Assembly: GCA_964499705.1 (NCBI GenBank)
Contig: CAZCME010000013.1
Span: forward strand, 45,217-109,216
Source of the DNA: an uncultured bacterium
Lineage (GTDB): Bacteria; UBA8481
Direction: 5' to 3'
Length of the DNA stretch: 64,000 nt
The notes beneath the pieces are model-generated. The model was not told the DNA's origin and ran no database searches. It saw only the letters and a program-made list of their open reading frames with translations. The translations under genes and the position numbers were made by a program. Shown piece by piece: positions 8,130 to 37,496 of this stretch. Position 1 is the stretch's first letter. Each line of letters opens with the position of its first letter.

Positions 8130-8163
8130 AGGAGAAGTATGAAGTATGAAATACTTCGTACTT

Positions 8164-11031
8164 CTATTGCGCCGTCACAAGGTAATCGCGAAGTGCCTGG
8201 AGCTGCTTTTCCTCGTCCGGCGTTCCGCCGTCGAGGTTGGCGGGCATCCGGACTCCGGGATAGAAGGCGGCCGGGTTGCGGATCCATTTAACGATCCAGT
8301 CCGCGCGGAGCCTCTTTCCGGCGAGCGCCAGGTCGGGAGCCCATGTGTTGGATCCGCTGAGCGGCGTCTTCGCGCCGATGATGTGGCACGTAGTCGCGCA
8401 TCCCAGGTCGTCGACCAGTTGTCGGCCTGCCGCGACTTCCGCGGAAGAGGGATCGGGATGGCGAAGTTCGCTGAGGATCATGGTCGGCGTTTCCACGGCG
8501 GCGAAATAGTAGACGAGCGTGTTCAGCTCCGCGTCCCTGAATCCGAACGACGGCATGCGTACATTCAGCCACGGCCGCGGTCTCGCCATCGCCGGATCAC
8601 GGATGAAGTCGTAGAGCCACTCCGCCCGGATCTTCTGGCCGGTGCTGATGAGATTCGGAGGATTGACGTTCGTGAGCCACGGAGCATCGAAAACATCCGA
8701 TTCGACGCCTTCGTATTTCATCACGGCTTCGCGTATAACGGGCCGGATCGAGCCGCCGCGTCCTTCGATGATATGGCAACCCTGGCAGTTGTATTCGCGG
8801 ACGAGCCGCTGGCCCTGTTCCACGACGAGGTTCTTCGGGGTTCTCGGGAACATCTTCTCCGCCTTCACGCTGGGCTTCACGAATCCGACGATGGCCGTCA
8901 CGACCGCGTCGATCTCGGTGTCGGAGAGATCGAAGTTCGGCATCCGGAGCTTATCCAGCGGCGCAAGAACCCGCTCACGGTCGAAGATCCTCGGCTCCTT
9001 CAGCTTCTGCGTGAACCAGTCGTAGTTGTTATGGCCGATGTCATGAATGTAGCCGAAATCGAGCTTGGAAACCGGCTTGGAACCTTCCTCCGTCAATTCG
9101 GTGCCGATCGGCATCGCGGTGTCGAATCCGGGGATCTCGTGGCAGCCGAAGCAGCCATACGTGCCTATCAGTTTCCGGCCGGTGAACTCGAGCTTCTGCG
9201 CCTGAGAACTCTTTTCGATCGTCTCTTTCGCCTGGGCGTTCGTCATGTTCTTCGCGAGAAACTCCAGCATGATTCCATTCAGGATCTTCTCATCGAGGGG
9301 AGGAATCTCCGTGTTGAACTCCTCGTTCCTGTTCTGCATCAGGTACGCCGTGACATCAGCCGCTTCCTGATCCGTCAGTCTCAGATCGGGCATCCTCGTA
9401 TTGGGCGAGAACGCATGAGGATTCCTGATCCAGTTGTAGACCCAGTCGGCGGAGGTCTTCGTCGCCAGTCCCGTCAGCTCCGGCCCCTGCATTCTCCGTA
9501 TCATGTCCGACGTCGTGTTCGTCCTTATGAAGGCCGATCGATCCTTGTCAAAGTGCGTCTTGTCTTCCTGCAGGTGGCATCCGTAGCAGCCAGTCGTCGC
9601 GAGGATCTTTTCGCCGCGGGCCGGATCGCCGGGCATCGCCATCGAAGCCATCGCATGCGTATCGCTGAACTGGAAGAGGTAGGCGACCATCGCGTGGATT
9701 TCCTGGCGGGATCGAGCCTTCTGTTCGTCGGAGCTGTTGTTCGACTGATCGAAGAACCGCGGCATCCACGTGTTATGGCGGAAGCTCTTCGGGTTCAGGA
9801 TCCACCGGTACGTCCAATCCTTGGACGTCTTCGCGGCGATCTTCCTCAGCGACGGGCCCGGCTTCGACCGGCCCAGGTAGCGGGAGATGTTATGGCAGCC
9901 GTAGCATCCGGCCTTCTCGATGACCTGGAGGCCCAGGTTCAGTTTCTCCGCGCCGCGCAGTTCCGTGGCGTGCGAATGACAGTTCAGGCATCCCGCTTCC
10001 GTGTACTTCGTCGGAAGCATCGGAGTCTCCCAATAGTGATAGAGATACCAGCCGTATTTCGCCTTCCATTCCTCTTCCTGCTCATGTGACGACGGCCTGT
10101 GAATCGACATCAGGAAGCTCGTGCCGCGTCCGCGGCCCAGGTGGCAGCTCGCGCAGCCGAACTCCTCGACCGGATGCGGGGAGGCGCTCGAAAGAAACAG
10201 ATCCAGCTTCGGATGCGTCTTGAAGGGCTGGGCATCTTCCGCGAATTCGGGCCTCATGAGGCCCTGGTGGCAGGTCTGGCACCGGTCGACGCTCGGGACG
10301 CGGAGAAAGTTCAGGTTGTCGGTGACGTCAGGAACGACGACTTGTTCGATCTTGTAGGACGGGTTGAGGAAATCGAGAAGCGGCATGTCGCGAATGGCGT
10401 TGCCGATCTTCGCGAGGAGGCTCATGTTCTCCGGATCCATGTTCGCCAGTTTCCTCTGGAGAACGGCGGCCTTCCTGGCCAGCGCGGCGGCGGAATCGTT
10501 CAGAGCGCGGATGGCGTCCTGCTTCTTCATCATCTCGGCGGAGGCGCTCTCCAGGTCCGTCGCGGCCTTCTCGTTCTTCAGGCGCAATGCTTCCATCTCG
10601 CCGAAGAGCTTGTCCATCTCCGCCTTCTGCTTCTGCCCCTCATGCCCGTGGCCGCGTTGGTTCTCGTAGCGATATTTCGCGGCTTCGTACTCCGATTTGC
10701 GGAACTGGTAATCCTGGTTCGCCTTGTCGCTGACGGCCTTCAATTCCGTGATGGTTTTCGCAAACTCCTGGCTCACCATCTTCCGGATTTCCAGGTCCGC
10801 CTCCACCTGAGCGACCGCGTCGACCGCGTTCTGCAGGTCGGCGCTGGAGAGGACATCGCGCGTCTTGGAGATATCGAGCTTCCTGAATTCGCGCTGAAAG
10901 TGTTTCCATTCGCGGTCGTAGTCGTCCACGAACATCCAGATGAACGTGGCGAACATGATGATGCTCGATATCGCGAAGACCCGGTTCACCCGGGACATCA
11001 CGTAATATCTCTGCTCGCCCTTCTCCGCCAC
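8164..11031 (-). CDS. Multihaem c-type cytochrome (about 8 haem-binding sites), bc-complex associated
   Basis: 955-aa ORF with CxxCH motifs CQTCH, CASCH, CLNCH, CYGCH (twice), CFGCH, CQGCH and one CxxxCH (CATTCH); N-terminal TM segment followed by a coiled-coil-like region. Confidence 0.8.
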   Translation of the reverse strand: MAEKGEQRYYVMSRVNRVFAISSIIMFATFIWMFVDDYDREWKHFQREFRKLDISKTRDVLSSADLQNAVDAVAQVEADLEIRKMVSQEFAKTITELKAVSDKANQDYQFRKSEYEAAKYRYENQRGHGHEGQKQKAEMDKLFGEMEALRLKNEKAATDLESASAEMMKKQDAIRALNDSAAALARKAAVLQRKLANMDPENMSLLAKIGNAIRDMPLLDFLNPSYKIEQVVVPDVTDNLNFLRVPSVDRCQTCHQGLMRPEFAEDAQPFKTHPKLDLFLSSASPHPVEEFGCASCHLGRGRGTSFLMSIHRPSSHEQEEEWKAKYGWYLYHYWETPMLPTKYTEAGCLNCHSHATELRGAEKLNLGLQVIEKAGCYGCHNISRYLGRSKPGPSLRKIAAKTSKDWTYRWILNPKSFRHNTWMPRFFDQSNNSSDEQKARSRQEIHAMVAYLFQFSDTHAMASMAMPGDPARGEKILATTGCYGCHLQEDKTHFDKDRSAFIRTNTTSDMIRRMQGPELTGLATKTSADWVYNWIRNPHAFSPNTRMPDLRLTDQEAADVTAYLMQNRNEEFNTEIPPLDEKILNGIMLEFLAKNMTNAQAKETIEKSSQAQKLEFTGRKLIGTYGCFGCHEIPGFDTAMPIGTELTEEGSKPVSKLDFGYIHDIGHNNYDWFTQKLKEPRIFDRERVLAPLDKLRMPNFDLSDTEIDAVVTAIVGFVKPSVKAEKMFPRTPKNLVVEQGQRLVREYNCQGCHIIEGRGGSIRPVIREAVMKYEGVESDVFDAPWLTNVNPPNLISTGQKIRAEWLYDFIRDPAMARPRPWLNVRMPSFGFRDAELNTLVYYFAAVETPTMILSELRHPDPSSAEVAAGRQLVDDLGCATTCHIIGAKTPLSGSNTWAPDLALAGKRLRADWIVKWIRNPAAFYPGVRMPANLDGGTPDEEKQLQALRDYLVTAQ

Positions 11032-11046
11032 GTTCCGTCTTCCTCT

Positions 11047-12162
11047 CTAAATGTTGAAGAAATACTCGGGGATCGCCACGAGGTATTTCAGGTTGAATGT
11101 CCAGCGCAGGTACATCTTGATCGGAATGAGGATCGCCCACAGGAGCATCACGATGAAGGTGCTGTAGCGGATCGGCCCCAGGCCGGCGTACATCTTCTTC
11201 AGCCAGGTCTTCGCCAGGAGAGGCGGCATCACCGCGAAATATCCTCCGACGAATAGAATGCCCCACATCTCCCGCAGGAGAATGTTCTTCGGCAATCCGA
11301 TGTTCAGGCCCTTCATGTAGATGTATTCGGACAGGTTGACGTTCGTCAGCGCTTCGAGCTTATGCAGGTCCCACGCCTCGAACGGGCCGAAGAAGTTCCA
11401 GTTCGGGCCGCGGAGAAATGTCCCGATGAAGATGAGGTAGACCCAGAGGATGAGCCAGCCGAACATGAAGAGCGAGATCGCAAGGCGCCGCTGCTTGTAG
11501 CTGTAATACCCGACGCCCTTTTCATTGTTGTCGATGAAGGGAATCGCGGCGATGCCTCCGAGGACAAGCGTCGGGAGGATGACGCCGGCGATCCAGGGAT
11601 CGAAATAGACGAGAAGCTCCTGGAGACCGAGGAAGTACCACGGGGCCTTGGCCGGATTGGGCGAGAGCGTCAAGTTCGCGGGTTCCTCCACGGGTGCCGG
11701 GAGATAGATCGACCAGACGATGAGAAACGCGGTGCAGAGAATAAGGGAGATGAACTCGATGTAGACGAGGTCCGGCCAGACAAGCACTTTATCCTTCGGA
11801 TCATGGATTTCGGTCGGCTTCATCCCGCTCGCGAGCTTCGCGTCGTTCTCCACGGCCTGCTTCATCGCGAGCCAGAGGAAGAAGTATGTCAGGAATGCGA
11901 GCCCCGCGATCGGCACGTTATCGGGCTTTGTCAGAATGAGGCTGCAGTTCTCGTCGGCCAGTCCAATGAGAAAGAAGAGCGTCATCAGGGCGAAGACCGT
12001 GACCGCGCCCTTGTTGGTCCAGAGGAACGGGATCTTCAGCCGTGCGTTCCACTTCTCGAACCAGTCGTTCGGCGGAAAGACGAAGAAGAGACCGCCCGCC
12101 AGGACTGTGAATGTAATGCGCGGGTCCGAGAGGAAGTTGACGAATTCCTTGAGGTAATGCAT
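11047..12162 (-). CDS. Cytochrome b C-terminal domain protein (subunit IV-like, split cytochrome b)
   Basis: 371-aa polytopic membrane ORF containing PWYFLGLQELL, which resembles the conserved PEWY region of cytochrome b C-terminal domains; start overlaps the stop of the cytochrome b N-terminal gene by 1 nt. Confidence 0.75.
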   Translation of the reverse strand: MHYLKEFVNFLSDPRITFTVLAGGLFFVFPPNDWFEKWNARLKIPFLWTNKGAVTVFALMTLFFLIGLADENCSLILTKPDNVPIAGLAFLTYFFLWLAMKQAVENDAKLASGMKPTEIHDPKDKVLVWPDLVYIEFISLILCTAFLIVWSIYLPAPVEEPANLTLSPNPAKAPWYFLGLQELLVYFDPWIAGVILPTLVLGGIAAIPFIDNNEKGVGYYSYKQRRLAISLFMFGWLILWVYLIFIGTFLRGPNWNFFGPFEAWDLHKLEALTNVNLSEYIYMKGLNIGLPKNILLREMWGILFVGGYFAVMPPLLAKTWLKKMYAGLGPIRYSTFIVMLLWAILIPIKMYLRWTFNLKYLVAIPEYFFNI

Positions 12163-12974
12163 CAGGTCGGCCCCGATATTCCGCCGTCCTTGCGGACGCG
12201 CCAGAAGTGCACCGCCATCATGATCATGATGACAAAGGGAAGACCGATGCAGTGGAGCACATAGAACCGCAGGAGCGTCGCTTCGCCGACGAACCTACCG
12301 CCGAGAAGCGCGAACCGGACGTCGGAACCCTGGTGGACGAAGTTGATGTCACCGAGCGCCAGGAACGCCGTTCCCGGGCCCTGCGCTCCCATGAACGGTG
12401 TCGCACCGCCCATGTTGGATCCGACCGTGATGGCCCAGATCGCGAGCTGATCCCACGGCAGGAGATAACCCGTGAAGGAGAGAAGCATGGTGAGAAGGAG
12501 GAGAACGACGCCGACGACCCAGTTGAATTCGCGCGGCGGTTTGTACGAACCGGTCATGAAGACACGGAACATATGGAGCCAGACGGTGATGACCATCAGG
12601 TGAGCGCCCCAGCGGTGAATCTCGCGCATGATCCCCAGCGGCACCTGTTCGCCCAGGTCGACGATGTCACCGTAGGCGTATTCGACGGTCGGGCGGTAAT
12701 AGAACATGAGGAGAATACCGGTGATGGTGAGGACGAGGAAGATGAAGAACGTGAGTCCTCCCATGCACCAGGTGTATTTCACCTTCACGGCGTGAGTCGG
12801 GAGCTGGACGGGATGGAGGTGCAGAAAGACGTTGTTCAAAACGACCATCATCCGGTCGCGCCGCGTGGAGGGCGGGCCGCCGCCCTGGCGAAAGAGCGAC
12901 CGCCAGATTGGCGAATCGGCGATATACTTCCACACATCCGCCGGAGTGATCATCTTCTTCTGTTCGTCAGCCAT
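12162..12974 (-). CDS. Cytochrome b N-terminal domain protein (b6-like)
   Basis: 270-aa ORF with haem-ligand-bearing helices ([31 protein letters not shown]) typical of cytochrome b/b6. Confidence 0.85.
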
Positions 12975-12994
12975 CGTTTACCTTCCTGTTGTCA

Positions 12995-13897
12995 TCAGAC
13001 GCGGAGATAGGACTCGGGATTTTCCCATTCGCCCTTCTCCTGCTGAAACTTTCTCGTCTTGTCCACGAAGATCTGCCCGTCGTCCGCCATGACAATCTTG
13101 TAGCGTTCGAGCGGACGGGGGGCCGGCCCCTCGAAGTTGATGCCCGTTCTGCGAAATCCGCTGCCATGGCACGGGCACTTGAATTTTCCTTCGCCGGCCA
13201 GCCAGTTCGGCGTGCATCCCAGGTGCGTGCAGACCGTGGAGAGCGCGAACATGTTGCTGCCATCGCGGACGATCCAGACGCCGTATTTCTCCTTCCAGCG
13301 CTCGGAGACACCGGCGTCGTATTCGTCGGGGAAACCGGCTTTGAACGATTGCGGCGGCTCGAAGAGGACATTCGGGAACATGAAGCGCTGCATCATCGCG
13401 AGCGAGCCGGCGGTCGCGGCGGAGAAGGCGAACCAGCCGACGGAGAGCGCGGATATGAACGCGCGGCGGTCGACGCCTTCACCGTCGGGCATGAGGGCGG
13501 CGACGGGAGTCTTCTTCGGATCGAATTCGATGGCGTGAGCTTTCCCATAAATCTGATCGCGAGCGATGACGACCTGGCCGGGACCGATCGAAGCGGGAAG
13601 ATATTCGAGCGGCTTGGCTTCAGCAGGTTTCGCAGCAGCCGCAGGAACCGGTTTTGCAGCGGCGACAGCGGGTTTGGCAGCGCCGGCTGTCGCGGGCGTT
13701 GCTGCGGTGGTTACGGGCTTGGCGGCGGGCGAGGAGGATGCCGCCGATACGGACGCGGCTTTTTCAATGACGGGCGCGGAGCCTGCGACGGGCGAGGCCT
13801 TAGGAGCCACTTTCACTGCGGGCTTCTGGACTGAGGCGGCGGCTTCTTTTTTTTCCGGCTCCACGGAAGGAGCCGACTCTCTGTTTGATTCCGTCAT
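12995..13897 (-). CDS. Rieske [2Fe-2S] protein of the bc-type complex
   Basis: C-terminal CTHLGC...CPCHGS Rieske boxes; twin-arginine/TM anchor DRRAFISALSVGWFAF. The ~135 N-terminal residues are Ala/Pro/Lys-rich low complexity; an alternative start at Met 13492 (MPDGEGVDRRAF...) would remove it. Confidence 0.8.
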   Translation of the reverse strand: MTESNRESAPSVEPEKKEAAASVQKPAVKVAPKASPVAGSAPVIEKAASVSAASSSPAAKPVTTAATPATAGAAKPAVAAAKPVPAAAAKPAEAKPLEYLPASIGPGQVVIARDQIYGKAHAIEFDPKKTPVAALMPDGEGVDRRAFISALSVGWFAFSAATAGSLAMMQRFMFPNVLFEPPQSFKAGFPDEYDAGVSERWKEKYGVWIVRDGSNMFALSTVCTHLGCTPNWLAGEGKFKCPCHGSGFRRTGINFEGPAPRPLERYKIVMADDGQIFVDKTRKFQQEKGEWENPESYLRV

Positions 13898-20355: not shown

Positions 20356-20961
20356 ATGACCATCCGTCCTCCCGCCTTCGAACGCCTCGTCGATGCCCTG
20401 TCGAGATTCCCCTCGATCGGCCCCAAGACTGCCGCGCGGATCGCGCTCTGGCTTTTGAACCAGCCGCCGGAAGCCAGCGAGCGGATCGCGCGGGCCATCA
20501 CGGAAGCGCGGCAGACAATCAGAAGATGCAGGATCTGTTTCCAGTACGCGGAGGACGAGCTGTGTCCGGTCTGCGCCGATCCGGCGCGGGACAAATCCAT
20601 TCTTTGCGTCGTGGAGGAAGCCGTGGACGTCTGGAGCTTTGAGCGGACCGGGCGATATCGAGGAACCTACCATGTCCTCGGCGGCGCGATTTCTCCATTG
20701 GACGGAATCGGTCCCGACGAGCTGACAGTCCAGGCTCTCTTGGAACGAGTCGCGGATCCCGCGCAGGGAATAGCGGAAGTCATTCTCGCGACCGATCCCG
20801 ACACGGAGGGCAACGCCACCGCGCTCTTCATCGCAGACCACCTGCCGCGGAGCCGCGTCAAGGTAAGCCGACTCGCGCACGGGCTGCCCGTGGGCGGCGA
20901 ACTAGCCTATTCCGACGATGCGACTCTGGCGGAAGCTCTGGCGGGTCGACGGATTTTATGA
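20356..20961 (+). CDS. recR: Recombination protein RecR
   Basis: 201-aa ORF with C4 zinc finger (CRICFQYAEDELCPVC) and Toprim-like region (LCVVEEAVDVWSFERTGRYRGTYHVLGG); divergent from flgF. Confidence 0.9.
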   Translation: MTIRPPAFERLVDALSRFPSIGPKTAARIALWLLNQPPEASERIARAITEARQTIRRCRICFQYAEDELCPVCADPARDKSILCVVEEAVDVWSFERTGRYRGTYHVLGGAISPLDGIGPDELTVQALLERVADPAQGIAEVILATDPDTEGNATALFIADHLPRSRVKVSRLAHGLPVGGELAYSDDATLAEALAGRRIL

Positions 20962-21142
20962 ATCGACACCGGAAGCGAAACTGGCGGACGCAAGGGCCTG
21001 CGCACTTCTCCCTGGGCCTCTGCACCGAGTGGGCTCGATCTCTTTCGTCCGCAATTTTCATGAGACGAGGAGACACGCGTCTTGTGCGCCGGTTTCACCT
21101 CATATAGGATCGATTCTCGTTCAGCAGGGAGGAAAAAGTAGA

Positions 21143-23584
21143 ATGAGAAACAACGCTTCATGTTCGACGTTCCGAATTCGATATTTATTTCTGTCAGGTT
21201 ACTTACTCGCCCTATTCGCAGCGAGTGATACATCCGCCGCCGCGCTGATCTTTCCGGATTCGCCAGGACCGGTTGCCGACAAGGTATTCGGGCAGCCGGG
21301 TTTCATAACCAACACCGCCGGAACATCTCTCGATCAGATGTCTGGCCCTTCTGATATTCTTTTCGACTCCGTCGGTCGGATGTACATTGCGGACCTGAAC
21401 AACGACCGTATTCTAATCTTCGCAAACCAAGACGATACAAGGGCCGATTTTGTGATAGGCGGGCCAATCAGTGGCGCGTTGCCAGGTCTTACCGGGGTTC
21501 CTTCTGGCGCGGGGGCCGATAGGCTGAATGCTCCAACGTTTCTCGCTCTCTTTGACGGCCCGGACACCTCCGTGTTGTTTGTATCCGAACAGTTGAACCA
21601 GAGGGTTCTCGGTTACATCTTAAGGCAACCTGGGTTTTCATTTCTCAGCGACACGCTGGCAGACTATGTCTTTGGGCAACCCACGTTTGATACAAACGTT
21701 ATTTCCAACAATGGCACAGGGGCCTCGTTACTTTCTGCCGTTGGACTTCGGAATCCGGCCGGACTTTCAATCCTGGATACTGGAGCTTCCACGATTTCGC
21801 TTTTCGTTGCGGATAGAACCAACTTGCGTGTTCTCCGGTATGACATCAATAAATCCCTTTTTGGTCTCCCCAATAGCAGCATGGATACAATTCCGGATGA
21901 GTTGTGGGGACAACCCGATTTTATGACTTCCGAACTAACTTTTGCCGTTTCGCGAGAAATCATTAGAGGGCCGCTCGGTGTAGCTTCAACGCCGGACAGG
22001 TTATTCATTGCCGCGGTACAGCCGAGGGTCGTAGTCGAATCTCTCACCGATCCCGACACTTCTTTTGACGGAGTTTATGGTCAGCCCGATTTTACATCTC
22101 AGACTGCCGGAAATGACACCACCTCGCTCGCTTCGCTTTTCTTATCGGTGGCGATAGGTCCAACAAAAAATGTATTAGCGATCATAGACAGGCAAAATCA
22201 TCGTATTCTACTGCACACCGATACTTCAGGCGCAGATATCATTCCCGATGATATTATCGGCGATACGAACTTCGTGGCACCCGTTCTTACCGGACCAAGC
22301 GCACAGTCGCTGCGTCTCCCAACCGCAGCTTATTTCCGATCCGACTCTGAAGTTTGGGTCACCGATTTCGGCAATAATCGCGCCCTGAGATTTGACCGCG
22401 GCTCCAACAACACGCCTGTTGGAAATAATGTGAACGTGACGGAATCGTTTGCAGTCCAAGGATTCCTGGTTACTGTGAAATTCGCATCAGTTTCGCAGGC
22501 GGGCAACACCGAGATCAGGTTACTCGACTCGATCCCACCGCTCGGAACAGATTTCCGCCTGACGAGCGATTCACTCTGTCCATCTTCCGATAATATGATC
22601 TTCCAGATCGGAACGACTGCGATCTTCACAACGGCTCAAGTGACGATCAATTTCAATGATAATGCCTGCCTGAAAAGCCTTTCGGTTCCCAATAAACTGA
22701 GCCTTGAGATGTTGCATTTTGACCTAATCCCGCCAGACCCGGACACCGTGACGTTCGGTAATGCTAATCCGGGAACAAATGAGATCAAAAGCATCGATCT
22801 CACCACGCTTTCGCCCTTTGTCGTCGCGGAGAAGATCTTTCGCGATCTCACACCGCCGACTATCACAATCGAAATCGAGAGCGGACATGTTTTTCATAAC
22901 TACGACGAGCCGGTTTTCAAGCCCAAGTCATTTGTGACGCTCAGCGCGACGGACAGCTCCGGAGTTTCCACGTTTGAGTGGCGGATCGATGATGGCGAAT
23001 TCCAAAGCTACTCCGAACCGTTCCAGATTGGCGAGAGCGTCGCGCGATCGAAGGGGGCGAATCCGAAGTCTGAAACGCACGTTCTGACAGCGCGAGCAAG
23101 CGACGTCTTCGGTAATACAGAGGAAACGCATCTCATATTCCGACTTGCGTCAAACGGACAACCGCGCGTTGATCGCAGCGTGCAGAACCTCACTATCCAA
23201 AGGGGAACTCTTCACATTTTCTCGATGCTCGAAAGCATTCAATTCGACCTCGGAGAGGAGATCGTTCTCACCATTGTATATGAGAATTCGCAGGATGTTT
23301 ACCGGCCTAACAATCCAAACCCGACGCCCGATGGAGGACAAACGATCGTCAGCATTTTAGATTCCCTTGGTCGCGAAGTCCATTCGCAAAGACGACACCC
23401 CGATCCTGATCCCGCGAAAGTCACGATCGGTATGGGCGAGAAATTAACCTACTCCTATTCCGTCATTTCGAAGATGTTTCCAAATGGTCTGCCTGCGGGT
23501 CGATACACCCTTGTGATTCAGTTCCGCGGCGAGTTTGCCGGACATCATGCATTCGAGGTAATGGACGATGACAGCGTCAAATAA
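21143..23584 (+). CDS. Secreted NHL-repeat beta-propeller protein with C-terminal beta-rich extension
   Basis: ORF 20918..23584 trimmed to Met 21143 (GGGAGG Shine-Dalgarno 10 nt upstream; signal peptide MRNNASCSTFRIRYLFLSGYLLALFAASDTSAAA). Repeated GQPGF/GQPTF/GQPDF and (A/S)DxxNxR(I/V)L motifs; gene is visibly lower in GC than its flanks. Confidence 0.75.
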   Translation: MRNNASCSTFRIRYLFLSGYLLALFAASDTSAAALIFPDSPGPVADKVFGQPGFITNTAGTSLDQMSGPSDILFDSVGRMYIADLNNDRILIFANQDDTRADFVIGGPISGALPGLTGVPSGAGADRLNAPTFLALFDGPDTSVLFVSEQLNQRVLGYILRQPGFSFLSDTLADYVFGQPTFDTNVISNNGTGASLLSAVGLRNPAGLSILDTGASTISLFVADRTNLRVLRYDINKSLFGLPNSSMDTIPDELWGQPDFMTSELTFAVSREIIRGPLGVASTPDRLFIAAVQPRVVVESLTDPDTSFDGVYGQPDFTSQTAGNDTTSLASLFLSVAIGPTKNVLAIIDRQNHRILLHTDTSGADIIPDDIIGDTNFVAPVLTGPSAQSLRLPTAAYFRSDSEVWVTDFGNNRALRFDRGSNNTPVGNNVNVTESFAVQGFLVTVKFASVSQAGNTEIRLLDSIPPLGTDFRLTSDSLCPSSDNMIFQIGTTAIFTTAQVTINFNDNACLKSLSVPNKLSLEMLHFDLIPPDPDTVTFGNANPGTNEIKSIDLTTLSPFVVAEKIFRDLTPPTITIEIESGHVFHNYDEPVFKPKSFVTLSATDSSGVSTFEWRIDDGEFQSYSEPFQIGESVARSKGANPKSETHVLTARASDVFGNTEETHLIFRLASNGQPRVDRSVQNLTIQRGTLHIFSMLESIQFDLGEEIVLTIVYENSQDVYRPNNPNPTPDGGQTIVSILDSLGREVHSQRRHPDPDPAKVTIGMGEKLTYSYSVISKMFPNGLPAGRYTLVIQFRGEFAGHHAFEVMDDDSVK

Positions 23585-23729
23585 TGGCAGTGAAACTTCT
23601 TACATAACAATTGCGGACCAGATAGATCCTGTATTATACTGGTTTCGGATAAAGGGCATCAGTCGTTACTGACCCTTATCCTTGTTCCAGGATTCCATTG
23701 ACTGTGAACAATATTGCATCGGAGCTGAA

Positions 23730-24788
23730 ATGAAGCGCGTCGAACCCGCCTTGGTCAACGTGAAATTCGCGAAATTCCCGACGCCAACTGCTGCCGTTCT
23801 TGAGCTGACGAACAGATGCAACGAACAATGCATTCACTGCATTCGCGAATCACCCGATCTACGATTCGACGACGAACTTGCGACCGCCGAATGGCTGAAG
23901 GTCGTTGATGATCTTGCGGACATCCGTACTTTTTCCGTATGTCTGACGGGTGGAGAGTGCACGATCCACCCCGGGTTCCTGGAAATCATCGACCGATGCC
24001 GAAGCCATCGCATTAATGTGTCGATAAAGACAAATGCACTTTCGTTGGCGCGAATCGCGCCGATGCTAGCGCGCAAGGGAGTCGGATTCATTGAAATCTC
24101 GCTGTACGGCGCGACACCGGAATCGCACGATCGGTGCACCCGGATTTCCGGTTCATTCCAGCGTCTCGTCGAGGGTGTCAAGGCGGCGAGAAAAAACGGT
24201 ATTCCAGTCTCCATGAACGCGATTGTCTTTCGATGGAATGCTCATGAGGCTCTTGCGATGCGCCGGCTTGGCCAGGAACTGGATTGCCCGATCAAACGCG
24301 ACTTCATGCTCTCGACCACCGATCTTGGCAGGCACCTCGATCTGGAATTGGTGACGTCTGCCCAGATTCGAGAAATCGAGTCGATCTGGCCCATGAACAC
24401 GCTGCCGGGCGCGCAGAACCGTCTTTCCCGGGTAAAAATCTGTACTCAGGGCATGAACACAGTCTGCGTAACCGCGCGTGGCGAAGTACTTTCATGCGTC
24501 ACGATCCGCAAGCCGCTCGGCAACGTCAGAAAAAATGGCCTCGCCGATACCTGGCTCACCACGACGGGAGGTCACAGCGGTGCAGCCCGGCGAGCGCATG
24601 ACGTGGACTACGGGAATTTCACTCGCTGCGAAGCGTGCAAGCATCTTCCGGTCTGCAGCGTCTGCCTGGGACAAAACTTCGCCGCCACCGGCAGCTTTTA
24701 CGAACCTCCCCTTGAAAGATGCTTTATTACCATGTCATTATTCGGTAACAAGGAAGGGATGGAAAATGGAAAGGAAGTCCATGCGTAA
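23730..24788 (+). CDS. Radical SAM enzyme with C-terminal SPASM/twitch-like cysteine cluster (putative peptide maturase)
   Basis: ORF 23682..24788 (TTG) trimmed to ATG 23730 with GGAG upstream. CNEQCIHC (Cx3Cx2C) radical SAM cluster near the N-terminus; C-terminal CEACKHLPVCSVC auxiliary-cluster motif. Confidence 0.8.
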   Translation: MKRVEPALVNVKFAKFPTPTAAVLELTNRCNEQCIHCIRESPDLRFDDELATAEWLKVVDDLADIRTFSVCLTGGECTIHPGFLEIIDRCRSHRINVSIKTNALSLARIAPMLARKGVGFIEISLYGATPESHDRCTRISGSFQRLVEGVKAARKNGIPVSMNAIVFRWNAHEALAMRRLGQELDCPIKRDFMLSTTDLGRHLDLELVTSAQIREIESIWPMNTLPGAQNRLSRVKICTQGMNTVCVTARGEVLSCVTIRKPLGNVRKNGLADTWLTTTGGHSGAARRAHDVDYGNFTRCEACKHLPVCSVCLGQNFAATGSFYEPPLERCFITMSLFGNKEGMENGKEVHA

Positions 24789-24996
24789 GTTATATGAAAA
24801 GCCGGAGCTGATCTGCTACAGCGGAATCAAGGTCGGAGTCTATTCCGTCTCCAACTCCAACGCCAATTGTCAGGCGGATTGCGCCGCCACTGTCTGTTCA
24901 TTTGTCGCGACAGCGTCGGCGGCTCCATGCGACACCTGCGATAACGACAATTCCCAGTGCGCTACCGGCCTGAATCCCGTGGTGGACTGCCTCTAA
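24766..24996 (+). CDS. Cys-rich small peptide, candidate RiPP precursor (76 aa, 8 Cys)
   Basis: ATG 24766 preceded by AAGGAAGGG about 8 nt upstream; overlaps the last 23 nt of the radical SAM gene in another frame. Sequence MERKSMRKLYEKPELICYSGIKVGVYSVSNSNANCQADCAATVCSFVATASAAPCDTCDNDNSQCATGLNPVVDCL. Confidence 0.5.
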   Translation: MERKSMRKLYEKPELICYSGIKVGVYSVSNSNANCQADCAATVCSFVATASAAPCDTCDNDNSQCATGLNPVVDCL

Positions 24997-25045
24997 TCCG
25001 GCGCGCTTTCTTGCGCCTTCCCCACGCCTCCGATAACATCCTCGA

Positions 25046-25705
25046 ATGCCCTACTACGTCAGCATCGGTGGACAGAATTACGGACCGGCCGAGCCGGACG
25101 AGCTCCAGAAATGGCACAAGGCGGGTTCCTTCAATCCCACTGACTTCGTATGGAATGAAGACGCCAACGAGTGGACCGAGGCGGCCCGGTTCGCGCCGCT
25201 GGCGCACCACTTCGATACGGCGGCGGCACCGGCCGTGGGCATCGAGGAGATCGACGAGCTTCCGCGCGAACAGAGCGCGCTTCAGCCGGCCGCGGGTCCC
25301 GAAACCGAAAGCTGGTGCGCGAACCATGAGACGAACAGAGCGACGGCGGTCTGCCCCCATTGCCGGAAATCCTTCTGCGCCCAATGCATGGTCTCGACGG
25401 GAGGAATCTCCGTCTGCATCGACTGCGTCAGCTCCGAAAAGGGCTCCGCGACTAAAAGTCCGAAGCGCACGGTCCTTCTGATCGGCGCCGTCATCGTCCT
25501 CATCGGCATCGCCGTCGGATCCTATCTCTTCTTCGCTCCGAAGCCCATCGAGCAGCCGGCCACGCCGGAGCTGATCGAACTGAAGCGAGGAGATGCGCCG
25601 GCCTCTCTGGCGGCGCCGGACAAGGCCGCCCCTCCCGCTGAAACTCCGGACACATCCGATTCGTCGGCCGGAGCCGTTGCTCCTTCAGATACTTCCACAC
25701 CATGA
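25046..25705 (+). CDS. DUF4339-like N-terminal domain / zinc-finger / single-pass membrane protein
   Basis: N-terminus MPYYVSIGGQNYGPAEPDELQKWHKAGSFNPTDFVWNEDANEWTEA; Cys/His cluster CANHETNRATAVCPHCRKSFCAQCMV...CIDC; TM helix VLLIGAVIVLIGIAVGSYLFF; Pro/Ala-rich C-terminus. Stop overlaps the glnD start (ATGA). Confidence 0.6.
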   Translation: MPYYVSIGGQNYGPAEPDELQKWHKAGSFNPTDFVWNEDANEWTEAARFAPLAHHFDTAAAPAVGIEEIDELPREQSALQPAAGPETESWCANHETNRATAVCPHCRKSFCAQCMVSTGGISVCIDCVSSEKGSATKSPKRTVLLIGAVIVLIGIAVGSYLFFAPKPIEQPATPELIELKRGDAPASLAAPDKAAPPAETPDTSDSSAGAVAPSDTSTP

Positions 25706-28020
25706 AAGGTTTCATCGCGCCGCTCATTCCTCCAAGCGAGCCCGAGGAGCTGGCACTCTGGGGCTCCAATCTCACGAAAGCTCTCACCGACCTGACGGAG
25801 AAGCTGACCTCGCCGGCCTTTGCCGAGCTCGATCCCGCGCGCGTCAGCGCATACGCCGTCGGCGGATACGGGCGCCGCGAGCTCGTTCCCTTCTCGGACG
25901 TCGACATTCTCTTCGTCGTGAAAAAGGACAAGGAAGTCGACCTCTCGAAGTCGATCTCCTTCCTATGGAGCCTGGGACTGAAACCGAGCGTCCTCATCCG
26001 GAATCTCGACAACCTGAAGGCCGCGGTCGCTGACGATCTGCTCTTCGCAACGACTCTCATCGACGCGCGGCACCTTTTCGGTTTCGAAGCGGAGCTCCTG
26101 TCCGGCCCGAAGACGTGGATCCGGTCGATCCGTCCGAAATTCGCGGAGGAGCACGAGAAGGAGAGAATGATCCGGCACCTGAAATATCTCGGCGCGGGCC
26201 ATCAGGAGCCCAACGTCCGGGATGGTCGCGGAGGCCTGCGCGATCTCCAGGATCGCCGGTGGATCGGCGCCATGGACAACTGGGAGAAACGCGACGAGGC
26301 GCTCTCCCCGGGGCAATGGGAGGATTACCGCAGGCTCCTCGCCGCCCGCGCGATCATCCACTGCGCGCTGGAGAAGCGCGAGGACCGGCTGCTGCTGGAA
26401 GAACAACAGACGATCAACGACTGGCTCGGATGGCCCATCGGAAAAAATTTCGCGAAGGAAACGCTCAGCACGATGAAACGCGTCGTCCGATCCTTCGATC
26501 CGGCGCCGCCCGACCCCGAATCCCGCGTCACCATCACGGAATTTCTGAACCGCATCGGAGCCGCAGACGAGAAGCCGCCGGCGACTTACCTGCGAAGGTG
26601 CGACGAAACAGGCGACCTGGGCCGACTCATCCCGGAATGGACGCGCATCGAATGCCTCACGAGGAACGATCCGATCCACCTCTTCACGCCCGAGGAACAT
26701 ACGCTCCGGGCCGTGGAACACCTGGATGCGATGCTCGCCGAAGGCCGCTTCCCGATCGACATCGCCGCCCTGAAGCGCCGCGATCTCCTGACGCTCGCGC
26801 TCCTCTTCCACGACATCGGCAAGGGATCCGGCAGGGACCACGAGGTGCGCGGACGGGAAATCGCGGAGGAGACGATGGAACGATGGGGTTATCCGCCGGG
26901 CGACATCGCGCTCGTCGCGTTCCTCGTGAACGAGCATCTGCTTCTCTCGTCGAACGCGTTCATGCGGGACGTTCACGATCCGAGCCTCATCCATGATGTC
27001 GCGAAGCGGATCGGCGACATCGAAAAGCTGACGATGCTCTATCTCCTAACGGTCGCCGACATCCGTGCCGTCAACGTGGAGTCGTTTTCGGAATGGAAAG
27101 CGAACCTCCTCAATACTCTGACGCGCCGCCTGTACCGCCAATGCCAGGCTTACCTCCCGACCGCCAAGCTCGCGGCGGACATACTCCGGCGTCGTCACGA
27201 GGCCGTGCTGCGACTCCCAGGGATGGGAGGAGTGTCGCGGGAGTCCACGGAGGGACGGAGCGACCCGCTCATGGCCAGCGATGCTCTCGACATGGACATC
27301 GAACGGCACTTCGCCAACATCGACGCGCGGTACGCCCTTGCTCATTCGCCCGAGCAGATCGCCAGCCACATCAAGCTGATCCCGAGATTGACGGCCGAGA
27401 AGACGGTGATCGAGCACCACTCCCATCCGGAAATGGGCTACACGGAAGTCCTGGTCATCACTCAGACCCATCACGGCCTCTTCGCCGAGATCGCCGGCAC
27501 CCTGTCCGCGAAGGGCTTCAATATTCTCGAAGCGGACATTTCCACCCGGACCGACGGCATCGCGATCGACTCCTTCAAGGTGAGCGACACATTCGATCCG
27601 GACCGCTGGAAATCCTTCGACCGTGACCTGATGCGCCTTCTTTCTAAGGAGATTTCGGCGGCGGCGCTGATCGCGGAACGCATGCCCTACGCCCGCCGGA
27701 ACGACCGCAAGGGGTCAGCGGCCGGCCGCAAGAAAACCGCGATCCTCATCGATAACCAGAGTTCCAAGACAAACACCGTCGTCGAGGTGATGGCGCCGGA
27801 CGAGATGGGCATTCTATACAGAATCGCCAAGACATTTCGTGATTGCGAGATAGGCATCAATTCGGCTATCGTATCGACAACATCGGATCAGGTAGTCGAC
27901 GTCTTCTACGTCACCACCCGGTCCGGAGAGAAGATCACGGACAAGACGGGCATGGAACGAATGGAATACCTGTTGCGCCAGATTATTTCGACCGAGAATT
28001 CAGGAGCCGCCATAGCATGA
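25702..28020 (+). CDS. glnD: [Protein-PII] uridylyltransferase/uridylyl-removing enzyme
   Basis: 772-aa ORF with nucleotidyltransferase motif (AVGGYGRRELVPFSDVDILFV), HD domain (LLFHDIGKG) and C-terminal ACT-like repeats. Confidence 0.85.
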   Translation: MKGFIAPLIPPSEPEELALWGSNLTKALTDLTEKLTSPAFAELDPARVSAYAVGGYGRRELVPFSDVDILFVVKKDKEVDLSKSISFLWSLGLKPSVLIRNLDNLKAAVADDLLFATTLIDARHLFGFEAELLSGPKTWIRSIRPKFAEEHEKERMIRHLKYLGAGHQEPNVRDGRGGLRDLQDRRWIGAMDNWEKRDEALSPGQWEDYRRLLAARAIIHCALEKREDRLLLEEQQTINDWLGWPIGKNFAKETLSTMKRVVRSFDPAPPDPESRVTITEFLNRIGAADEKPPATYLRRCDETGDLGRLIPEWTRIECLTRNDPIHLFTPEEHTLRAVEHLDAMLAEGRFPIDIAALKRRDLLTLALLFHDIGKGSGRDHEVRGREIAEETMERWGYPPGDIALVAFLVNEHLLLSSNAFMRDVHDPSLIHDVAKRIGDIEKLTMLYLLTVADIRAVNVESFSEWKANLLNTLTRRLYRQCQAYLPTAKLAADILRRRHEAVLRLPGMGGVSRESTEGRSDPLMASDALDMDIERHFANIDARYALAHSPEQIASHIKLIPRLTAEKTVIEHHSHPEMGYTEVLVITQTHHGLFAEIAGTLSAKGFNILEADISTRTDGIAIDSFKVSDTFDPDRWKSFDRDLMRLLSKEISAAALIAERMPYARRNDRKGSAAGRKKTAILIDNQSSKTNTVVEVMAPDEMGILYRIAKTFRDCEIGINSAIVSTTSDQVVDVFYVTTRSGEKITDKTGMERMEYLLRQIISTENSGAAIA

Positions 28021-34826: not shown

Positions 34827-35849
34827 CTAAACGACTAACTCCTGCTGCGTCAATGTTGGAATGTTGGAGAATGTCCCCCTGATTGCTTCGGCAAGGGCTC
34901 CTTTGCGCCTGTCTTTTCGCATGCGAGAAACGATCATCGAATAATAACCATTCGGGTGGCGATCGCCGTCCTCATGCTGGATACGGTCGTAGGTCCAGCG
35001 GGCCAGCTCATGCGCAATGTAGATCGTGAGTTCGCGGTGCATCGCCTCGATCGACGACCATGCCTGGCGGCGCATTTCGGATGTGGCCATGACGAACCGG
35101 TCGGCCATCTGCTGAAGATCGCTCCAGGACCACGACACGGCGTCGCGGTCCATCGTGCGTCGCTTTCTGGTTTCTTCGAACCGCTGACGGCGTTCCGTCT
35201 GGAGTTCGATACGCTTTCGAAATAGATGCGAGCTCATGAAACGGCCGTTATGGCCCTCGCGAAACAGTGTTTCGTTGGATTCTGCGTTGAGTTCATTGAA
35301 CCATCTGTCCAATACGCCCAACTGTTTAACATGATCGAAGGAGGAGATGTTCTTTCCGAAGAGTTGCTCGGCGAGCAGATGCCGGTCGACGCGATTTCTC
35401 TGGGTTCCCATGCCCAGCATTTCCCGCGCACTGCACCAAGGATAAAGAAGCGGATCGCGTACGAAACCGGCACGGACTGGATTGAGGATGATGTAGGCGA
35501 CGACGGTTTCAAAGTAGGACTCCGTCTCGATGACGAGCGACTTCGATCTGCCCTGGAAGAGGTGGCCGGTCCGGTCGTGGCGTCGGTTGAGTTCCTGAGA
35601 GGCGCGCGTCAAAAATCGCCGCAGGAATTCCGAAATGTCGCCGCCGGGCGTTCGAAGGCAGAAATGAAAATGATTCGGCATGAGACAATAGGCATACGTG
35701 ACGACGCGAAACATCTTTGCCGACTCGAAATAGAGATCGAGAAATCGACGGTAATCGGACTCGTGCTGGAAGAACGGGTGCTTGTCGACGAAGCGATTGA
35801 GGACGTGGTAGACGGCGTCCTTGTAGGCGATGCGTGGACCTCTGGACAT
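34827..35849 (-). CDS. IS200-like Y1 (HUH) transposase, REP-associated tyrosine transposase (RAYT)-like
   Basis: 340-aa ORF; HUH motif CLMPNHFHFCL and tyrosine motif VAYIILNPVRAGFV align by eye with the PEHMHCIW and YIYINPVK regions of E. coli RayT; N-terminal AVYHVLNR. C-terminal codons read through a repeat copy. Confidence 0.75.
   Translation of the reverse strand: MSRGPRIAYKDAVYHVLNRFVDKHPFFQHESDYRRFLDLYFESAKMFRVVTYAYCLMPNHFHFCLRTPGGDISEFLRRFLTRASQELNRRHDRTGHLFQGRSKSLVIETESYFETVVAYIILNPVRAGFVRDPLLYPWCSAREMLGMGTQRNRVDRHLLAEQLFGKNISSFDHVKQLGVLDRWFNELNAESNETLFREGHNGRFMSSHLFRKRIELQTERRQRFEETRKRRTMDRDAVSWSWSDLQQMADRFVMATSEMRRQAWSSIEAMHRELTIYIAHELARWTYDRIQHEDGDRHPNGYYSMIVSRMRKDRRKGALAEAIRGTFSNIPTLTQQELVV
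34851..34878 (+). repeat. 28-bp REP-like repeat, copy 4
   Basis: Exact CAATGTTGGAATGTTGGAGAATGTCCCC; inverted partner of copy 3 with a 193-bp spacer; lies inside the last ~17 codons of the transposase ORF. Confidence 0.8.
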
Positions 35850-35860
35850 GGCGATGTCTC

Positions 35861-36202
35861 CTATCGGCTTGCGGTGCGGTCGAAATAGTCGCGGACGATG
35901 TTACGGAAGCGTGTGGATCGATGAGGAAGTTCGGCGAGCCATCGCATGTATGTCGGGTCGCGCCGGCTGATCTCCTCGAGCGACCGGCCGCGATGCTTGC
36001 CGAACGCGATTCGATGCGACCTGCCGTGGGGAATCAAACCGGATCGCTTCCGTTCGAAGTTATCGCTGCAGGCGGCTGAATAGACCTCGTCGGCCTTCCG
36101 GAAGGCTTCGTCTTCCGATAGGCCGATACTTCTGAAAATTCCGAATGCACAGGCGCGATCCTGCTCCGGGCTGGTCACTTTCCGCCGATCCTGTTTCGCC
36201 AT
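35861..36202 (-). CDS. Small protein with exodeoxyribonuclease X C-terminal-like (DUF3820-like) motif
   Basis: ORF 35861..36373 trimmed to Met 36202 (MAKQDRRKVTSP...); IAFGKHRGRSLEEISRRDPTYMRWLAEL resembles the FGKYKG...DP.YL.WL motif of that family (recalled, not searched). Confidence 0.45.
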   Translation of the reverse strand: MAKQDRRKVTSPEQDRACAFGIFRSIGLSEDEAFRKADEVYSAACSDNFERKRSGLIPHGRSHRIAFGKHRGRSLEEISRRDPTYMRWLAELPHRSTRFRNIVRDYFDRTASR

Positions 36203-36286
36203 TGTGGTCTCCTTTCGTGATTGAGTGTCATACAGAGCAGAAGTTGTGCCGGCAGAAGTGCTTATTTTCCAGCAAGAGCATATCCG

Positions 36287-36332
36287 GAAAAGTGTCGAAT
36301 CCTGGACACATGTCCAGAATTCGACACTTTTC
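36287..36332. promoter_or_regulatory. 46-bp imperfect dyad symmetry, candidate operator
   Basis: GAAAAGTGTCGAAT-CCTGGACA-CA-TGTCCAGA-ATTCGACACTTTTC; 14-bp outer arms perfect, inner arms 7 of 8; located ~85 bp upstream of the small gene preceding the transposase. Confidence 0.3.
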
Positions 36333-36551
36333 ACGCACAGGATTCTCAGGATCAACAGGATGAAAACCGGCAAATCATATATTTTGAACGTTCATCCTAT
36401 CCTGTGGATCCTGCTCAATATTGAAGCGAAAATAATATTTGCAGTGGCTATAGAGCTCGGGTATTGACTACGGGGACAGATATTTCTTGGATTGGAGCGC
36501 AGCCAGGATTTTGACTGCCGGCTGCAAAAATGTGTTCTATGATGAAAATGG

Positions 36552-37496
36552 ATGAAAATGGGCCGTCCAATCACTTTTCAGTTGTTGATTGGATCTATTC
36601 TTTTACTTTTTGCCGACGAAGGTCCCGCCGGAATCTGCCTTCTCTATTTCAGTCAGAACATCGCTACTTTTGGTCGAATTGCGTTTCATTCACGATCCAG
36701 ACGAATGATCGCGCTCGGCCTCATTCTTATTTTGGTTCAGATATTTTTTTGCATGAAACTTTTCTTTGCTCTCACGCTAGACACATTCGAGTTGCTTCTT
36801 CGCAACAACTTTATTCCTGCCGTTTTCGTTTTCTTCCTCGAAGGTGCGACAGTCGATGAGGCAATGGCGAAGCGCGCCGGCTTTTGGATCTTTCTAATTA
36901 ACTGGGCGATTCTCTCGGCCGGTATGATTGCGTTTGCTCGACTAAAAGCTGAGCACCACCTTCAATTCGCTATCATTGCGTTGGTAGCTCTCTGCAAAGG
37001 ACTGTCGCAACTGGCGCCAACATTGCGTGAAAACCGCAAGCGAACTCCGTTTGGGCACGCGGCATACGGGGTACTCGTTCTGATAATGCTATTCGGTTTC
37101 TATCACACAATTGGAAGCGAGCGTCCATCTGTTGATTACGCGGGCGCGCTTGAACGTGCATTAACGACAGGCGATTCAGAACAAGCGATTGCGCTTTTGC
37201 AATTAACCAATCCTTCCGGGCAAATCGTGGTCGCCCACCAGGTCGACGGCACACCTGCAATCGAGCTCGCGCTGCAATCTCAGTTGCCGCAGGTTCGCAA
37301 AGCGGCAATTAGAACGTATGAGGTCTGGATGATCAACGCCGTCGATCGGGATCCATCCGATCGTGATGACCTTGAACGTCGCTACAAATCTCACATGACC
37401 CCGCTACTGTCCGATCCTGTATCAAGAATTCAAGAACTGGCGAGGGAAGCATATGAAAATCCAAAAGGCTATTCGGGATGGAGAAGCCCGTTCTAA
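36552..37496 (+). CDS. Hypothetical membrane protein with C-terminal helical-repeat region
   Basis: 314-aa ORF in an AT-richer stretch; several hydrophobic helices then a soluble C-terminal part (ALLQLTNPSGQIVVAHQVDGTPAIELALQSQLPQVRKAAIRTYEV); start uncertain. Confidence 0.45.
   Translation: MKMGRPITFQLLIGSILLLFADEGPAGICLLYFSQNIATFGRIAFHSRSRRMIALGLILILVQIFFCMKLFFALTLDTFELLLRNNFIPAVFVFFLEGATVDEAMAKRAGFWIFLINWAILSAGMIAFARLKAEHHLQFAIIALVALCKGLSQLAPTLRENRKRTPFGHAAYGVLVLIMLFGFYHTIGSERPSVDYAGALERALTTGDSEQAIALLQLTNPSGQIVVAHQVDGTPAIELALQSQLPQVRKAAIRTYEVWMINAVDRDPSDRDDLERRYKSHMTPLLSDPVSRIQELAREAYENPKGYSGWRSPF

Follow-up and report, generated by a model that had tools for sequence, protein, structure and literature searches.

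Does a tract of AT-rich DNA that holds three adjacent genes record a single episode of gene import? The question is raised by a 64,000-nucleotide stretch from an uncultured bacterium (assembly GCA_964499705.1, contig CAZCME010000013.1), hereafter the window, in which three genes, all on the plus strand, lie between recR and the genes leading to glnD. They encode a secreted NHL-repeat protein of 813 amino acids (21143-23584), a 352-residue radical S-adenosylmethionine (SAM) enzyme with a SPASM domain (23730-24788), and a 71-residue peptide with eight cysteines (24781-24996), the start of which overlaps the radical SAM stop codon. A reading made from the sequence alone (the original prediction) had taken the three for a unit acquired together by recent horizontal transfer. 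Our analysis indicates that the tract is probably a composite, made up of an ancestral pair of radical SAM and peptide genes (the "cassette") and a dispensable NHL accessory module with a real compositional anomaly.

The low-GC tract is confirmed, and the coordinates first given for it (21100-25000) were nearly right. GC content per kilobase is 0.50-0.52 between 21 and 24 kb and 0.56 between 24 and 25 kb, compared to about 0.60-0.65 in both flanks. A two-change-point likelihood fit over 18-28 kb placed the low-GC segment, a feature without strand, at 21041-24870, where the GC content is 0.517, compared with 0.616 in the 10 kb around it (twice the log-likelihood difference = 93). Both 21100-25000 and 21037-23628 have the lowest GC content in the 64 kb among windows of equal length; the raw GC content of the radical SAM and peptide genes alone falls at the 6.9th percentile. 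The left edge is sharp and lies right after the recR stop codon, whereas the right edge is gradual, with a local dip at 24600-24900. AT-rich spacers lie at 23585-23729 and around 24600-24900.

The compositional anomaly is real but uneven, and it is centered on the NHL gene. Genes were called with an iteratively trained codon model, antisense shadow open reading frames (ORFs) were taken out, and 43 clean genes of at least 100 amino acids from the window served as the reference (GC content at third codon positions, GC3, 0.772 ± 0.044, minimum 0.689). The sliding-window GC, GC3, codon-usage and tetranucleotide checks that the original prediction had called for were run within the window, and place the NHL gene outside the distribution: its GC3 is 0.549 (z = -5.1) and its Karlin codon bias B is 0.50, whereas genes of similar length reach at most 0.31. 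The radical SAM gene deviates moderately (GC3 0.632, z = -3.2, with most of the deficit in the 5' half), and its codon bias of 0.36 is borderline relative to a maximum of 0.354 at similar length. The peptide gene is within range (GC3 0.694, z = -1.8); its codon bias is 0.45, in a window that holds no genes of comparable length. The atypical third-position bias claimed for the whole tract therefore holds for the NHL gene, moderately for the radical SAM gene, and not for the peptide gene. Composition-normalized tetranucleotide signatures depart furthest from the rest of the window at 20.5-23.5 kb (z = -3.6) and more mildly over the radical SAM gene (z about -2).

The radical SAM-peptide pair is ancestral and vertically inherited in this Hydrogenedentota clade. 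Relatives were gathered from the genomic contexts of radical SAM homologs, from a glnD-profile scan of species genomes and from a radical SAM-profile scan of metagenomes, and are referred to here by locus (L003, L007 and so on). The radical SAM family is tiny, with 13 homologs at 47-75% identity and the next match at only 31%. The order flgF-recR-radical SAM-peptide-GYF-glnD was found in every genome recovered with a glnD of this type. It is complete from flgF to glnD in L003 (a 488-kb contig), L008/L013, L009, L010, L012/L014 (Candidatus Hydrogenedentes CG07, 43% GC), L015 and L022-L025, and the portion from the cassette through GYF to glnD is present on the shorter contigs L007, L026 and L029. 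The conserved order spans genomes of 43% to 69% GC and glnD identities down to 48-53%. A synteny comparison had been set beforehand as the test that could refute a joint import, and it shows the order recR-radical SAM-peptide-GYF-glnD kept in distant relatives. The arrangement that had been supposed to be normal, in which recR is directly followed by glnD, was not found in any related genome recovered. Pfam upheld the identification of both flanking genes, recR (20356-20961, plus strand), which has a host-like composition and is the left neighbor of the cassette in all relatives, and glnD (25702-28020, plus strand), the core gene for PII uridylyltransferase that served as our yardstick of divergence. 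Where an island gene would be absent from the same site in relatives, the radical SAM and peptide genes are at the site in all of them, and the NHL gene alone is absent there in L007, L008, L010, L014, L015 and L029.

The radical SAM gene has diverged in step with glnD. Amino acid identities for radical SAM and glnD, respectively, are 75% and 84% between the window and L007, 76% and 80% between L008 and L010, and 47-55% and 48-53% in deep pairs, and neighbor-joining trees of the two genes contain identical sister pairs; the cassette is therefore ancestral. In four deep lineages (L003, L008, L010 and L012) the GC3 of the radical SAM gene equals that of its flanking genes. Xenologous replacement, with a low-GC relative as donor of the cassette, was also considered and found no support: it is to the low-GC L014 lineage that the window enzyme bears the least similarity (47-48%), and the trees are congruent.

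Of the three genes, it is possible that only the NHL gene behaves like an insertion. L007, the nearest relative of the window, has no NHL gene; its recR-radical SAM slot is filled by a Phd/YefM antitoxin and PIN toxin pair (L007 166-803) with a GC3 of 0.74, versus 0.89 in the flanks. This slot seems to act as a hotspot of accessory cargo. In L003 an NHL homolog, 52% identical over 567 amino acids, lies inverted between the peptide and GYF genes, with a GC3 of 0.60 versus 0.80 in its neighbors, while at that point L029, a relative of L003 (radical SAM 84%, glnD 77%), has nothing but a 116-bp spacer. These are two independent contrasts of presence and absence between moderately close relatives, and the position and orientation of the NHL gene differ between them. 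The L003 homolog is split by a single frameshift, at about 13760 (minus strand), into the called genes x169 and x808, which is either an assembly error or the mark of a decaying gene.

The NHL gene is bracketed by the longest inverted repeat of the region. The repeat is 26 nucleotides long and imperfect (21/26 complementary), with its left arm, GATCTCTTTCGTCCGCAATTTTCATG, in the recR-NHL spacer (21037-21062, plus strand) and its right arm, CATAACAATTGCGGACCAGATAGATC, in the NHL-radical SAM spacer (23603-23628, plus strand). This level of match was reached in none of 300 shuffles and in one of 300 random segment pairs, and an exact 10-mer, GTCCGCAATT, occurs within the window at the two arms only. 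The GC change-point at 21041 falls within the left arm. An 8-mer from the core of the repeat, CCGCAATT, is found at 21049-21056 in the window and at 14248-14255 in L003, 94 and 83 nucleotides upstream of the respective NHL start codons and in opposite orientations relative to the gene. As an NHL-specific motif it was rejected: its overall count of 8 is no enrichment over the 5.7 expected, the two copies are oriented differently, and L020, the third locus with a close NHL homolog, has nothing comparable. Its presence may reflect a regulatory site or mere coincidence. No structured RNA in the spacers matched Rfam at E <= 1.

The GC3 deficit of the radical SAM gene occurs only in the window and in L007, and in opposite halves of the gene. 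The window gene has a GC3 of 0.55-0.62 at its 5' end, which rises to 0.68-0.72 at its 3' end; in L007 it falls from 0.75-0.88 to 0.42-0.53 toward the 3' end (about 1700-2053). A recombination breakpoint, at which a foreign 5' half would have arrived with the NHL gene, was considered and rejected, because the two enzymes share 79% identity over the 5' half and less, 71%, over the 3' half. Yet at residues that are identical in the two proteins, the window has a GC3 of 0.59 and L007 one of 0.84. The orthologous radical SAM gene has thus lost GC locally, beside the accessory gene. Accessory DNA and its immediate flanks may be under weaker GC-favoring forces, through less homologous recombination and gene conversion or weaker codon selection, which would match the low GC3 of the other cargo found in the slot, the L007 toxin-antitoxin pair.

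These observations fit together if the radical SAM and precursor genes (23730-24996) have lain between recR and GYF-glnD since before the sampled lineages diverged. In the lineage of the window, the NHL gene would then fill the variable recR-radical SAM slot as a 2.6-kb module bounded by the inverted repeats, and the milder GC3 deficit of the radical SAM gene would be a local effect of its position beside that module, with no sign of foreign origin. Several facts weigh against this reading. The locus contains no transposase, integrase or tRNA at the NHL module and no evident target-site duplication; there are no comparable inverted repeats around the NHL homologs of L003 or L020, and the repeat may be a shared regulatory site instead. 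Because only short contigs represent L007 and L029, NHL genes could lie elsewhere in both genomes, and the composition of the window's genome is represented by one 64-kb window only. A module of an FG-GAP surface protein (L030 10001-12028) shares 61% identity with NHL residues 423-577. Most cassettes have no NHL gene, protease or transporter nearby, and any role of the NHL protein therefore cannot be essential. Finally, the NHL proteins and the cassettes have diverged to similar degrees (52% and 55% for L003, 44% and 44% for L020, 42% and 49% for the third pair), which fits an old and often-lost companion as well as it fits an insertion in the window's lineage.

The explanation that competes best with a composite tract, although we consider it unlikely, follows from this last point. 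It holds that the NHL gene and the cassette have been at the locus equally long and that most lineages have since lost or rearranged the former, its low GC3 being the equilibrium of a dispensable, rarely recombining surface-protein gene (under AT-biased mutation and weak GC-biased gene conversion or selection) and not the trace of an import. Beyond the pairwise match of NHL and radical SAM divergences, it draws on the low GC3 of the NHL gene in both high-GC hosts (0.55 versus 0.77 in the window, 0.60 versus 0.80 in L003) and its host-like value in L020, at 46% GC, on the similar deficit of the toxin-antitoxin cargo, on the loss of GC3 in situ in the orthologous 5' half of the window's radical SAM gene, and on the frameshift in the L003 NHL copy. 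The cost is at least four independent losses in the recR-glnD clade (in the L007, L029, L008/L010 and L014/L015 lineages), where two gains would suffice; nor does an old resident gene sit easily with the different position and orientation of NHL in the window and L003, or with a sharp left GC boundary that coincides with a flanking inverted repeat.

That the NHL, radical SAM and peptide genes were recently imported together, into a site where recR had originally adjoined glnD, is very improbable. A single contiguous low-GC tract does cover all three genes, no accepted gene in the window has a lower GC3 than the radical SAM gene, and the three genes co-occur elsewhere (L003 and L020), but the hypothesis fails because the radical SAM-peptide pair is ancestral and vertically inherited in the clade. 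The pair is syntenic in all relatives, down to about 47% radical SAM identity and across 43-69% GC; the divergences and trees of radical SAM and glnD are congruent; the GC3 of the cassette is host-like in other lineages; the window enzyme is orthologous to that of L007 along its whole length; and the peptide gene is not a compositional outlier. Hardly credible at all is the suggestion that the dip has no evolutionary meaning and combines a repeat protein rich in Ser, Thr, Asn and Asp, which the NHL protein is, with AT-rich regulatory spacers (23585-23729 and about 24600-24900, the latter with a promoter-like match), since the deficit is greatest at synonymous third positions (z = -5.1), the amino-acid-normalized codon bias of 0.50 is far beyond that of genes of similar length, and the composition-normalized tetranucleotide signature, too, deviates here more than anywhere else in the window.

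The three genes nonetheless belong together in another sense. Among 5.8 billion proteins, only three NHL homologs share more than 40% identity (those of the window, L003 and L020, the last being P0042), and all three lie within about 3.3 kb of a cassette, although the genomic context of L020 is unrelated. In that genome, which has a GC content of 46%, the NHL homolog is about 3.3 kb from a radical SAM gene whose product is 44% identical to that of the window. After the radical SAM gene come a peptide homolog that had not been called, a pair of ABC transporter genes and another radical SAM/SPASM gene; a Wzy_C gene (900 amino acids) lies between the radical SAM and NHL genes, a transposase fragment follows the NHL gene, and the GC3 of the NHL gene is host-like. 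The position of all three close NHL homologs beside cassettes of so rare a family cannot be chance; it suggests functional linkage, and the NHL protein, enzyme and peptide probably form a functional unit. The original prediction is borne out to the extent that the genes co-occur in the window, L003 and L020; their joint import is unsupported. As a separate observation, L020 (1777-12734) and L028 (959-4710) carry lower-GC, non-syntenic cassettes in which radical SAM and peptide genes precede an ABC_tran/ABC_tran_2 pair that is 57-66% identical between the two loci, a hint that the product may be exported in at least some lineages.

The radical SAM gene encodes a predicted peptide maturase. Pfam Radical_SAM and SPASM score 78.4 bits (cutoff 29.5) and 23.3 bits (cutoff 21.5), and about 15 enzymes of the family were recovered. 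In 15 homologs the CX3CX2C motif for the radical SAM [4Fe-4S] cluster (C30-x3-C34-x2-C37) is invariant, as is the full seven-cysteine SPASM motif (C238-x12-G251-x4-C256, C300-x2-C303-x5-C309-x2-C312 and C331), which differs from the CX9-15GX4C ... CX2CX5CX3C ... C motif for two auxiliary clusters in its last spacing (x2 versus x3). The structure model has a predicted local distance difference test (pLDDT) score of 82. By sequence, the nearest solved relatives are SkfB and PqqE, and the nearest folds are anSME (template-modeling, TM, score 0.67), SuiB, PqqE, SkfB and CteB. Neither the sequence nor the model has an N-terminal RiPP recognition element (RRE; RiPP, a peptide that is made by the ribosome and then modified post-translationally): only about 20 residues precede the first core strand, and SkfB and CteB align to the enzyme from their residues 108 and 97 onward. 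A PqqD-like gene was not seen in any cassette locus examined. The enzyme exceeds no NCBIfam cutoff; the 25 best matches listed are all far below theirs, and the best-scoring named family is ScmE (TIGR04250), at 105.7 bits versus a cutoff of 400.

Some cassettes contain tandem radical SAM paralogs of the same family (L003 8946-10004, L004 7838-8785, L011 4144-5136 and L021 170-1386). The L003 paralog is a second copy upstream of the cassette, and in L011 the gene caller put minus-strand genes over the upstream paralog. A second cassette with two radical SAM genes (L004-L006) is present in the same metagenome as the window, which derives from Hainich groundwater. In the tree, the upstream paralogs group in one clade and the downstream ones in another, which implies an old duplication.

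The precursor peptides are equally distinctive. Ten homologs align over their full length, with an N-terminal Y-x-K-P-x-L-x-C-Y motif and a core of the form C-Q-A-D-C...C...A-T...C-D-x-C-D...C...D-C. In these ten sequences Y5, P8, L10, Y13, G19, S22, N25, C30, D33, C34, C39, T44, C50, D54 and C60 are invariant, and K7, C12, S24, Q31, A43, D51, C53, G63, P66, D69 and C70 are nearly so. No precursor model in Pfam (E <= 0.01) or NCBIfam (E <= 0.1) matched the peptide. A word-index search with the peptide recovered only the peptide itself, and an exhaustive HMMER search of every protein among 1.84 billion found five cluster representatives of the family, in data where small ORFs are under-called. 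A promoter-like match, TTGAAA-18-CATTAT with an upstream TG (extended -10), lies at 24712-24741 (plus strand), inside the 3' end of the radical SAM gene and about 40 nucleotides upstream of the peptide start; it is a match to consensus only. Together with the GC3 of 0.42-0.53 at the 3' end of the L007 gene, it suggests that AT-rich expression signals for the precursor may be embedded in the enzyme gene.

The pattern of Cys, Asp and Thr in the peptide (CQADC, CDxCD, DC) suggests possible thioether cross-links, as in ranthipeptides, sactipeptides or QhpC. Because the enzyme lacks an RRE domain, it would bind the YxKPxLxCY region at the N-terminus of the precursor directly. The radical SAM cluster and two auxiliary clusters would then install intramolecular cross-links, most probably thioethers from Cys to Asp, Thr or Asn. 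Where the secreted NHL propeller is present, we propose that it acts on or binds the product outside the cytoplasm. Most likely the cassette represents a previously undescribed family that pairs an RRE-less radical SAM/SPASM enzyme with a Cys-rich precursor and is predicted to form thioethers.

The NHL protein begins with a hydrophobic, signal-like helix and matches Pfam NHL at 26.7 bits (cutoff 20). Residues of about 41-420 form a six-bladed NHL beta-propeller in the AlphaFold2 model (pLDDT 85-94), with Foldseek target TM scores of 0.80-0.87 to the NHL domains of TRIM-type proteins (TRIM2/3/71, Thin and Brat). The C-terminal half is poorly modeled; it contains an OmpL47-type or Ig-like module, and the NCBIfam model for an OmpL47-type barrel is borderline at 39.5 bits (cutoff 40). 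The protein is identical to MEK8023244.1 of Candidatus Hydrogenedentota, and a protein identical to the peptide is likewise labeled Candidatus Hydrogenedentota at NCBI. The module at residues 423-577 was considered as a cassette-specific part and rejected, because its counterpart is in the FG-GAP protein of a 17-kb locus (L030) with no radical SAM gene among the five genes called. The shared module points to possible domain shuffling among surface proteins; its occurrence away from any cassette places the NHL protein in a modular class of secreted propeller proteins. The FG-GAP gene stands in a row of genes for very large secreted beta-propeller proteins, one of them more than 3500 amino acids long, as well as SBBP and NHL proteins.

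Comparison with characterized systems supports the novelty of the cassette more than its assignment to any one of them. SCIFF peptides (six cysteines in forty-five) and other ranthipeptides (CteB, Tte1186, PapB/freyrasin) resemble it in the pairing of a radical SAM/SPASM enzyme with a short conserved Cys-rich precursor, in the frequent lack of a dedicated protease or transporter, in a distribution that is lineage-wide and not patchy, and in conserved Cys along with Asp and Thr that could form thioethers. The usual hosts of SCIFF are Clostridia, whereas here the host belongs to the Hydrogenedentota. Further differences are the absence of an N-terminal RRE, the radical SAM core beginning at about residue 20, and a 71-residue precursor with a different motif set and no match in Pfam or NCBIfam; among the 25 best NCBIfam matches of the enzyme there is no SCIFF-maturase model. 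The missing RRE is the fused PqqD-like winged helix (about 80-100 amino acids) of RRE-dependent synthases of the AlbA, SkfB, CteB and PapB type. The invariant Cys, Asp, Thr, Asn and Ser of the precursor would be compatible with the Cys-S to C-alpha, C-beta or C-gamma thioethers of sactipeptide and ranthipeptide synthases. The thioether chemistry of the ranthipeptide class has been reviewed (PMC10114670).

A second comparison is with quinohemoprotein amine dehydrogenase. The association of the cassette with a propeller protein in the window, L003 and L020 may be likened to this system by analogy. Its QhpC polypeptide works together with a periplasmic beta-propeller subunit. The radical SAM/SPASM enzyme QhpD cross-links Cys to Asp and Glu side chains in this small Cys-rich polypeptide (PMC10114670). 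Here, by contrast, the peptide has no sequence-family match, the enzyme's 25 best NCBIfam matches include no QhpD model, the cassette lacks genes for a heme subunit, a protease and a flavoenzyme, and most cassettes lack the NHL gene. The propellers differ too, that of QhpB having seven blades and the NHL propeller six.

The SynChlorMet cassette, with ScmE and ScmF (TIGR04250/TIGR04251), shares with this family the best-scoring named model and the tandem radical SAM paralogs of the L003, L004-6, L011 and L021 cassettes. It differs in that the ScmE score is far below cutoff and no PqqD-like gene occurs here; a weak, precomputed ScmC hint beside the L004-L005 cassette was not reproduced at E <= 0.001. 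In the literature searched we found no mention of the Scm cassette, and none of Hydrogenedentes in a radical SAM or RiPP context.

The tract has features of a classical genomic island, including atypical GC, GC3, codon bias and tetranucleotides, a sharp left boundary, a flanking inverted repeat and an NHL gene missing from the nearest relative. Unlike such islands, it has no integrase, transposase or tRNA target at the locus, and two of its three genes are ancestral and syntenic. Elsewhere in the window, a second and stronger low-GC patch (34827-37496) looks more like a classical mobile insertion than does the tract with the NHL, radical SAM and peptide genes. Two minus-strand genes, for an IS200-like Y1 transposase (34827-35849) and an ExoX-like_C protein (35861-36373), are found there together with an orphan ORF of 314 amino acids (36552-37496; GC3 0.495, z = -6.4, B = 0.68) that a Pfam search did not match. 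Upstream of the flagellar genes, 8164-13897 (minus strand) forms an unusual fused respiratory module in which a 955-residue multi-heme cytochrome c with FixO-like and cbb3-type domains adjoins cytochrome b and Rieske genes.

The right neighbor of the cassette is also conserved. A gene for a GYF_2 and B-box-like zinc-finger protein, identified by Pfam (25046-25705, plus strand; its stop overlaps the glnD start), always lies between the peptide gene and glnD (window, L003, L007, L008, L010, L014, L015 and L029), and in the window it is 49 bp from the peptide gene. Co-transcription may link the cassette to glnD, a nitrogen-signaling gene. The GYF gene is absent beside cassettes located elsewhere in the chromosome (L004, L011, L020 and L028). 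The contig of L001 is 100% identical to the window except in its glnD (7141-9441), which is only 97.5% identical and is called shorter, at 700 amino acids; the mismatch may reflect variation at the strain level, or else the 5' end of glnD may have been assembled differently.

With few proteases or transporters nearby, strict vertical inheritance and conservation over the whole length, the peptides resemble SCIFF-type housekeeping peptides more than antibiotic gene clusters. A bolder proposal, which we hold to be distinctly doubtful, is that the 71-residue product is a housekeeping peptide of the clade and not a diffusible RiPP of the antibiotic type, serving as a ligand, a cofactor-bearing subunit or a signal, sometimes with a recruited NHL partner in the manner of quinohemoprotein amine dehydrogenase. 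If true, a partner gene would have been recruited repeatedly beside the cassette, and an arrangement of enzyme and cross-linked peptide would have been built on an RRE-less SPASM enzyme.

The locus is a cautionary case, in that a contiguous low-GC tract was read as a single import though two of its three genes are ancestral, and it indicates that GC3 can drop locally in an orthologous gene that adjoins an accessory insert. For the Hydrogenedentota, a poorly known candidate phylum, it reveals a very rare and unannotated family of radical SAM/SPASM enzymes and precursors, fixed beside glnD and recurrently accompanied by an NHL protein. This family would be a tractable target both for a new cross-linked peptide and for the study of leader recognition by an enzyme without an RRE.

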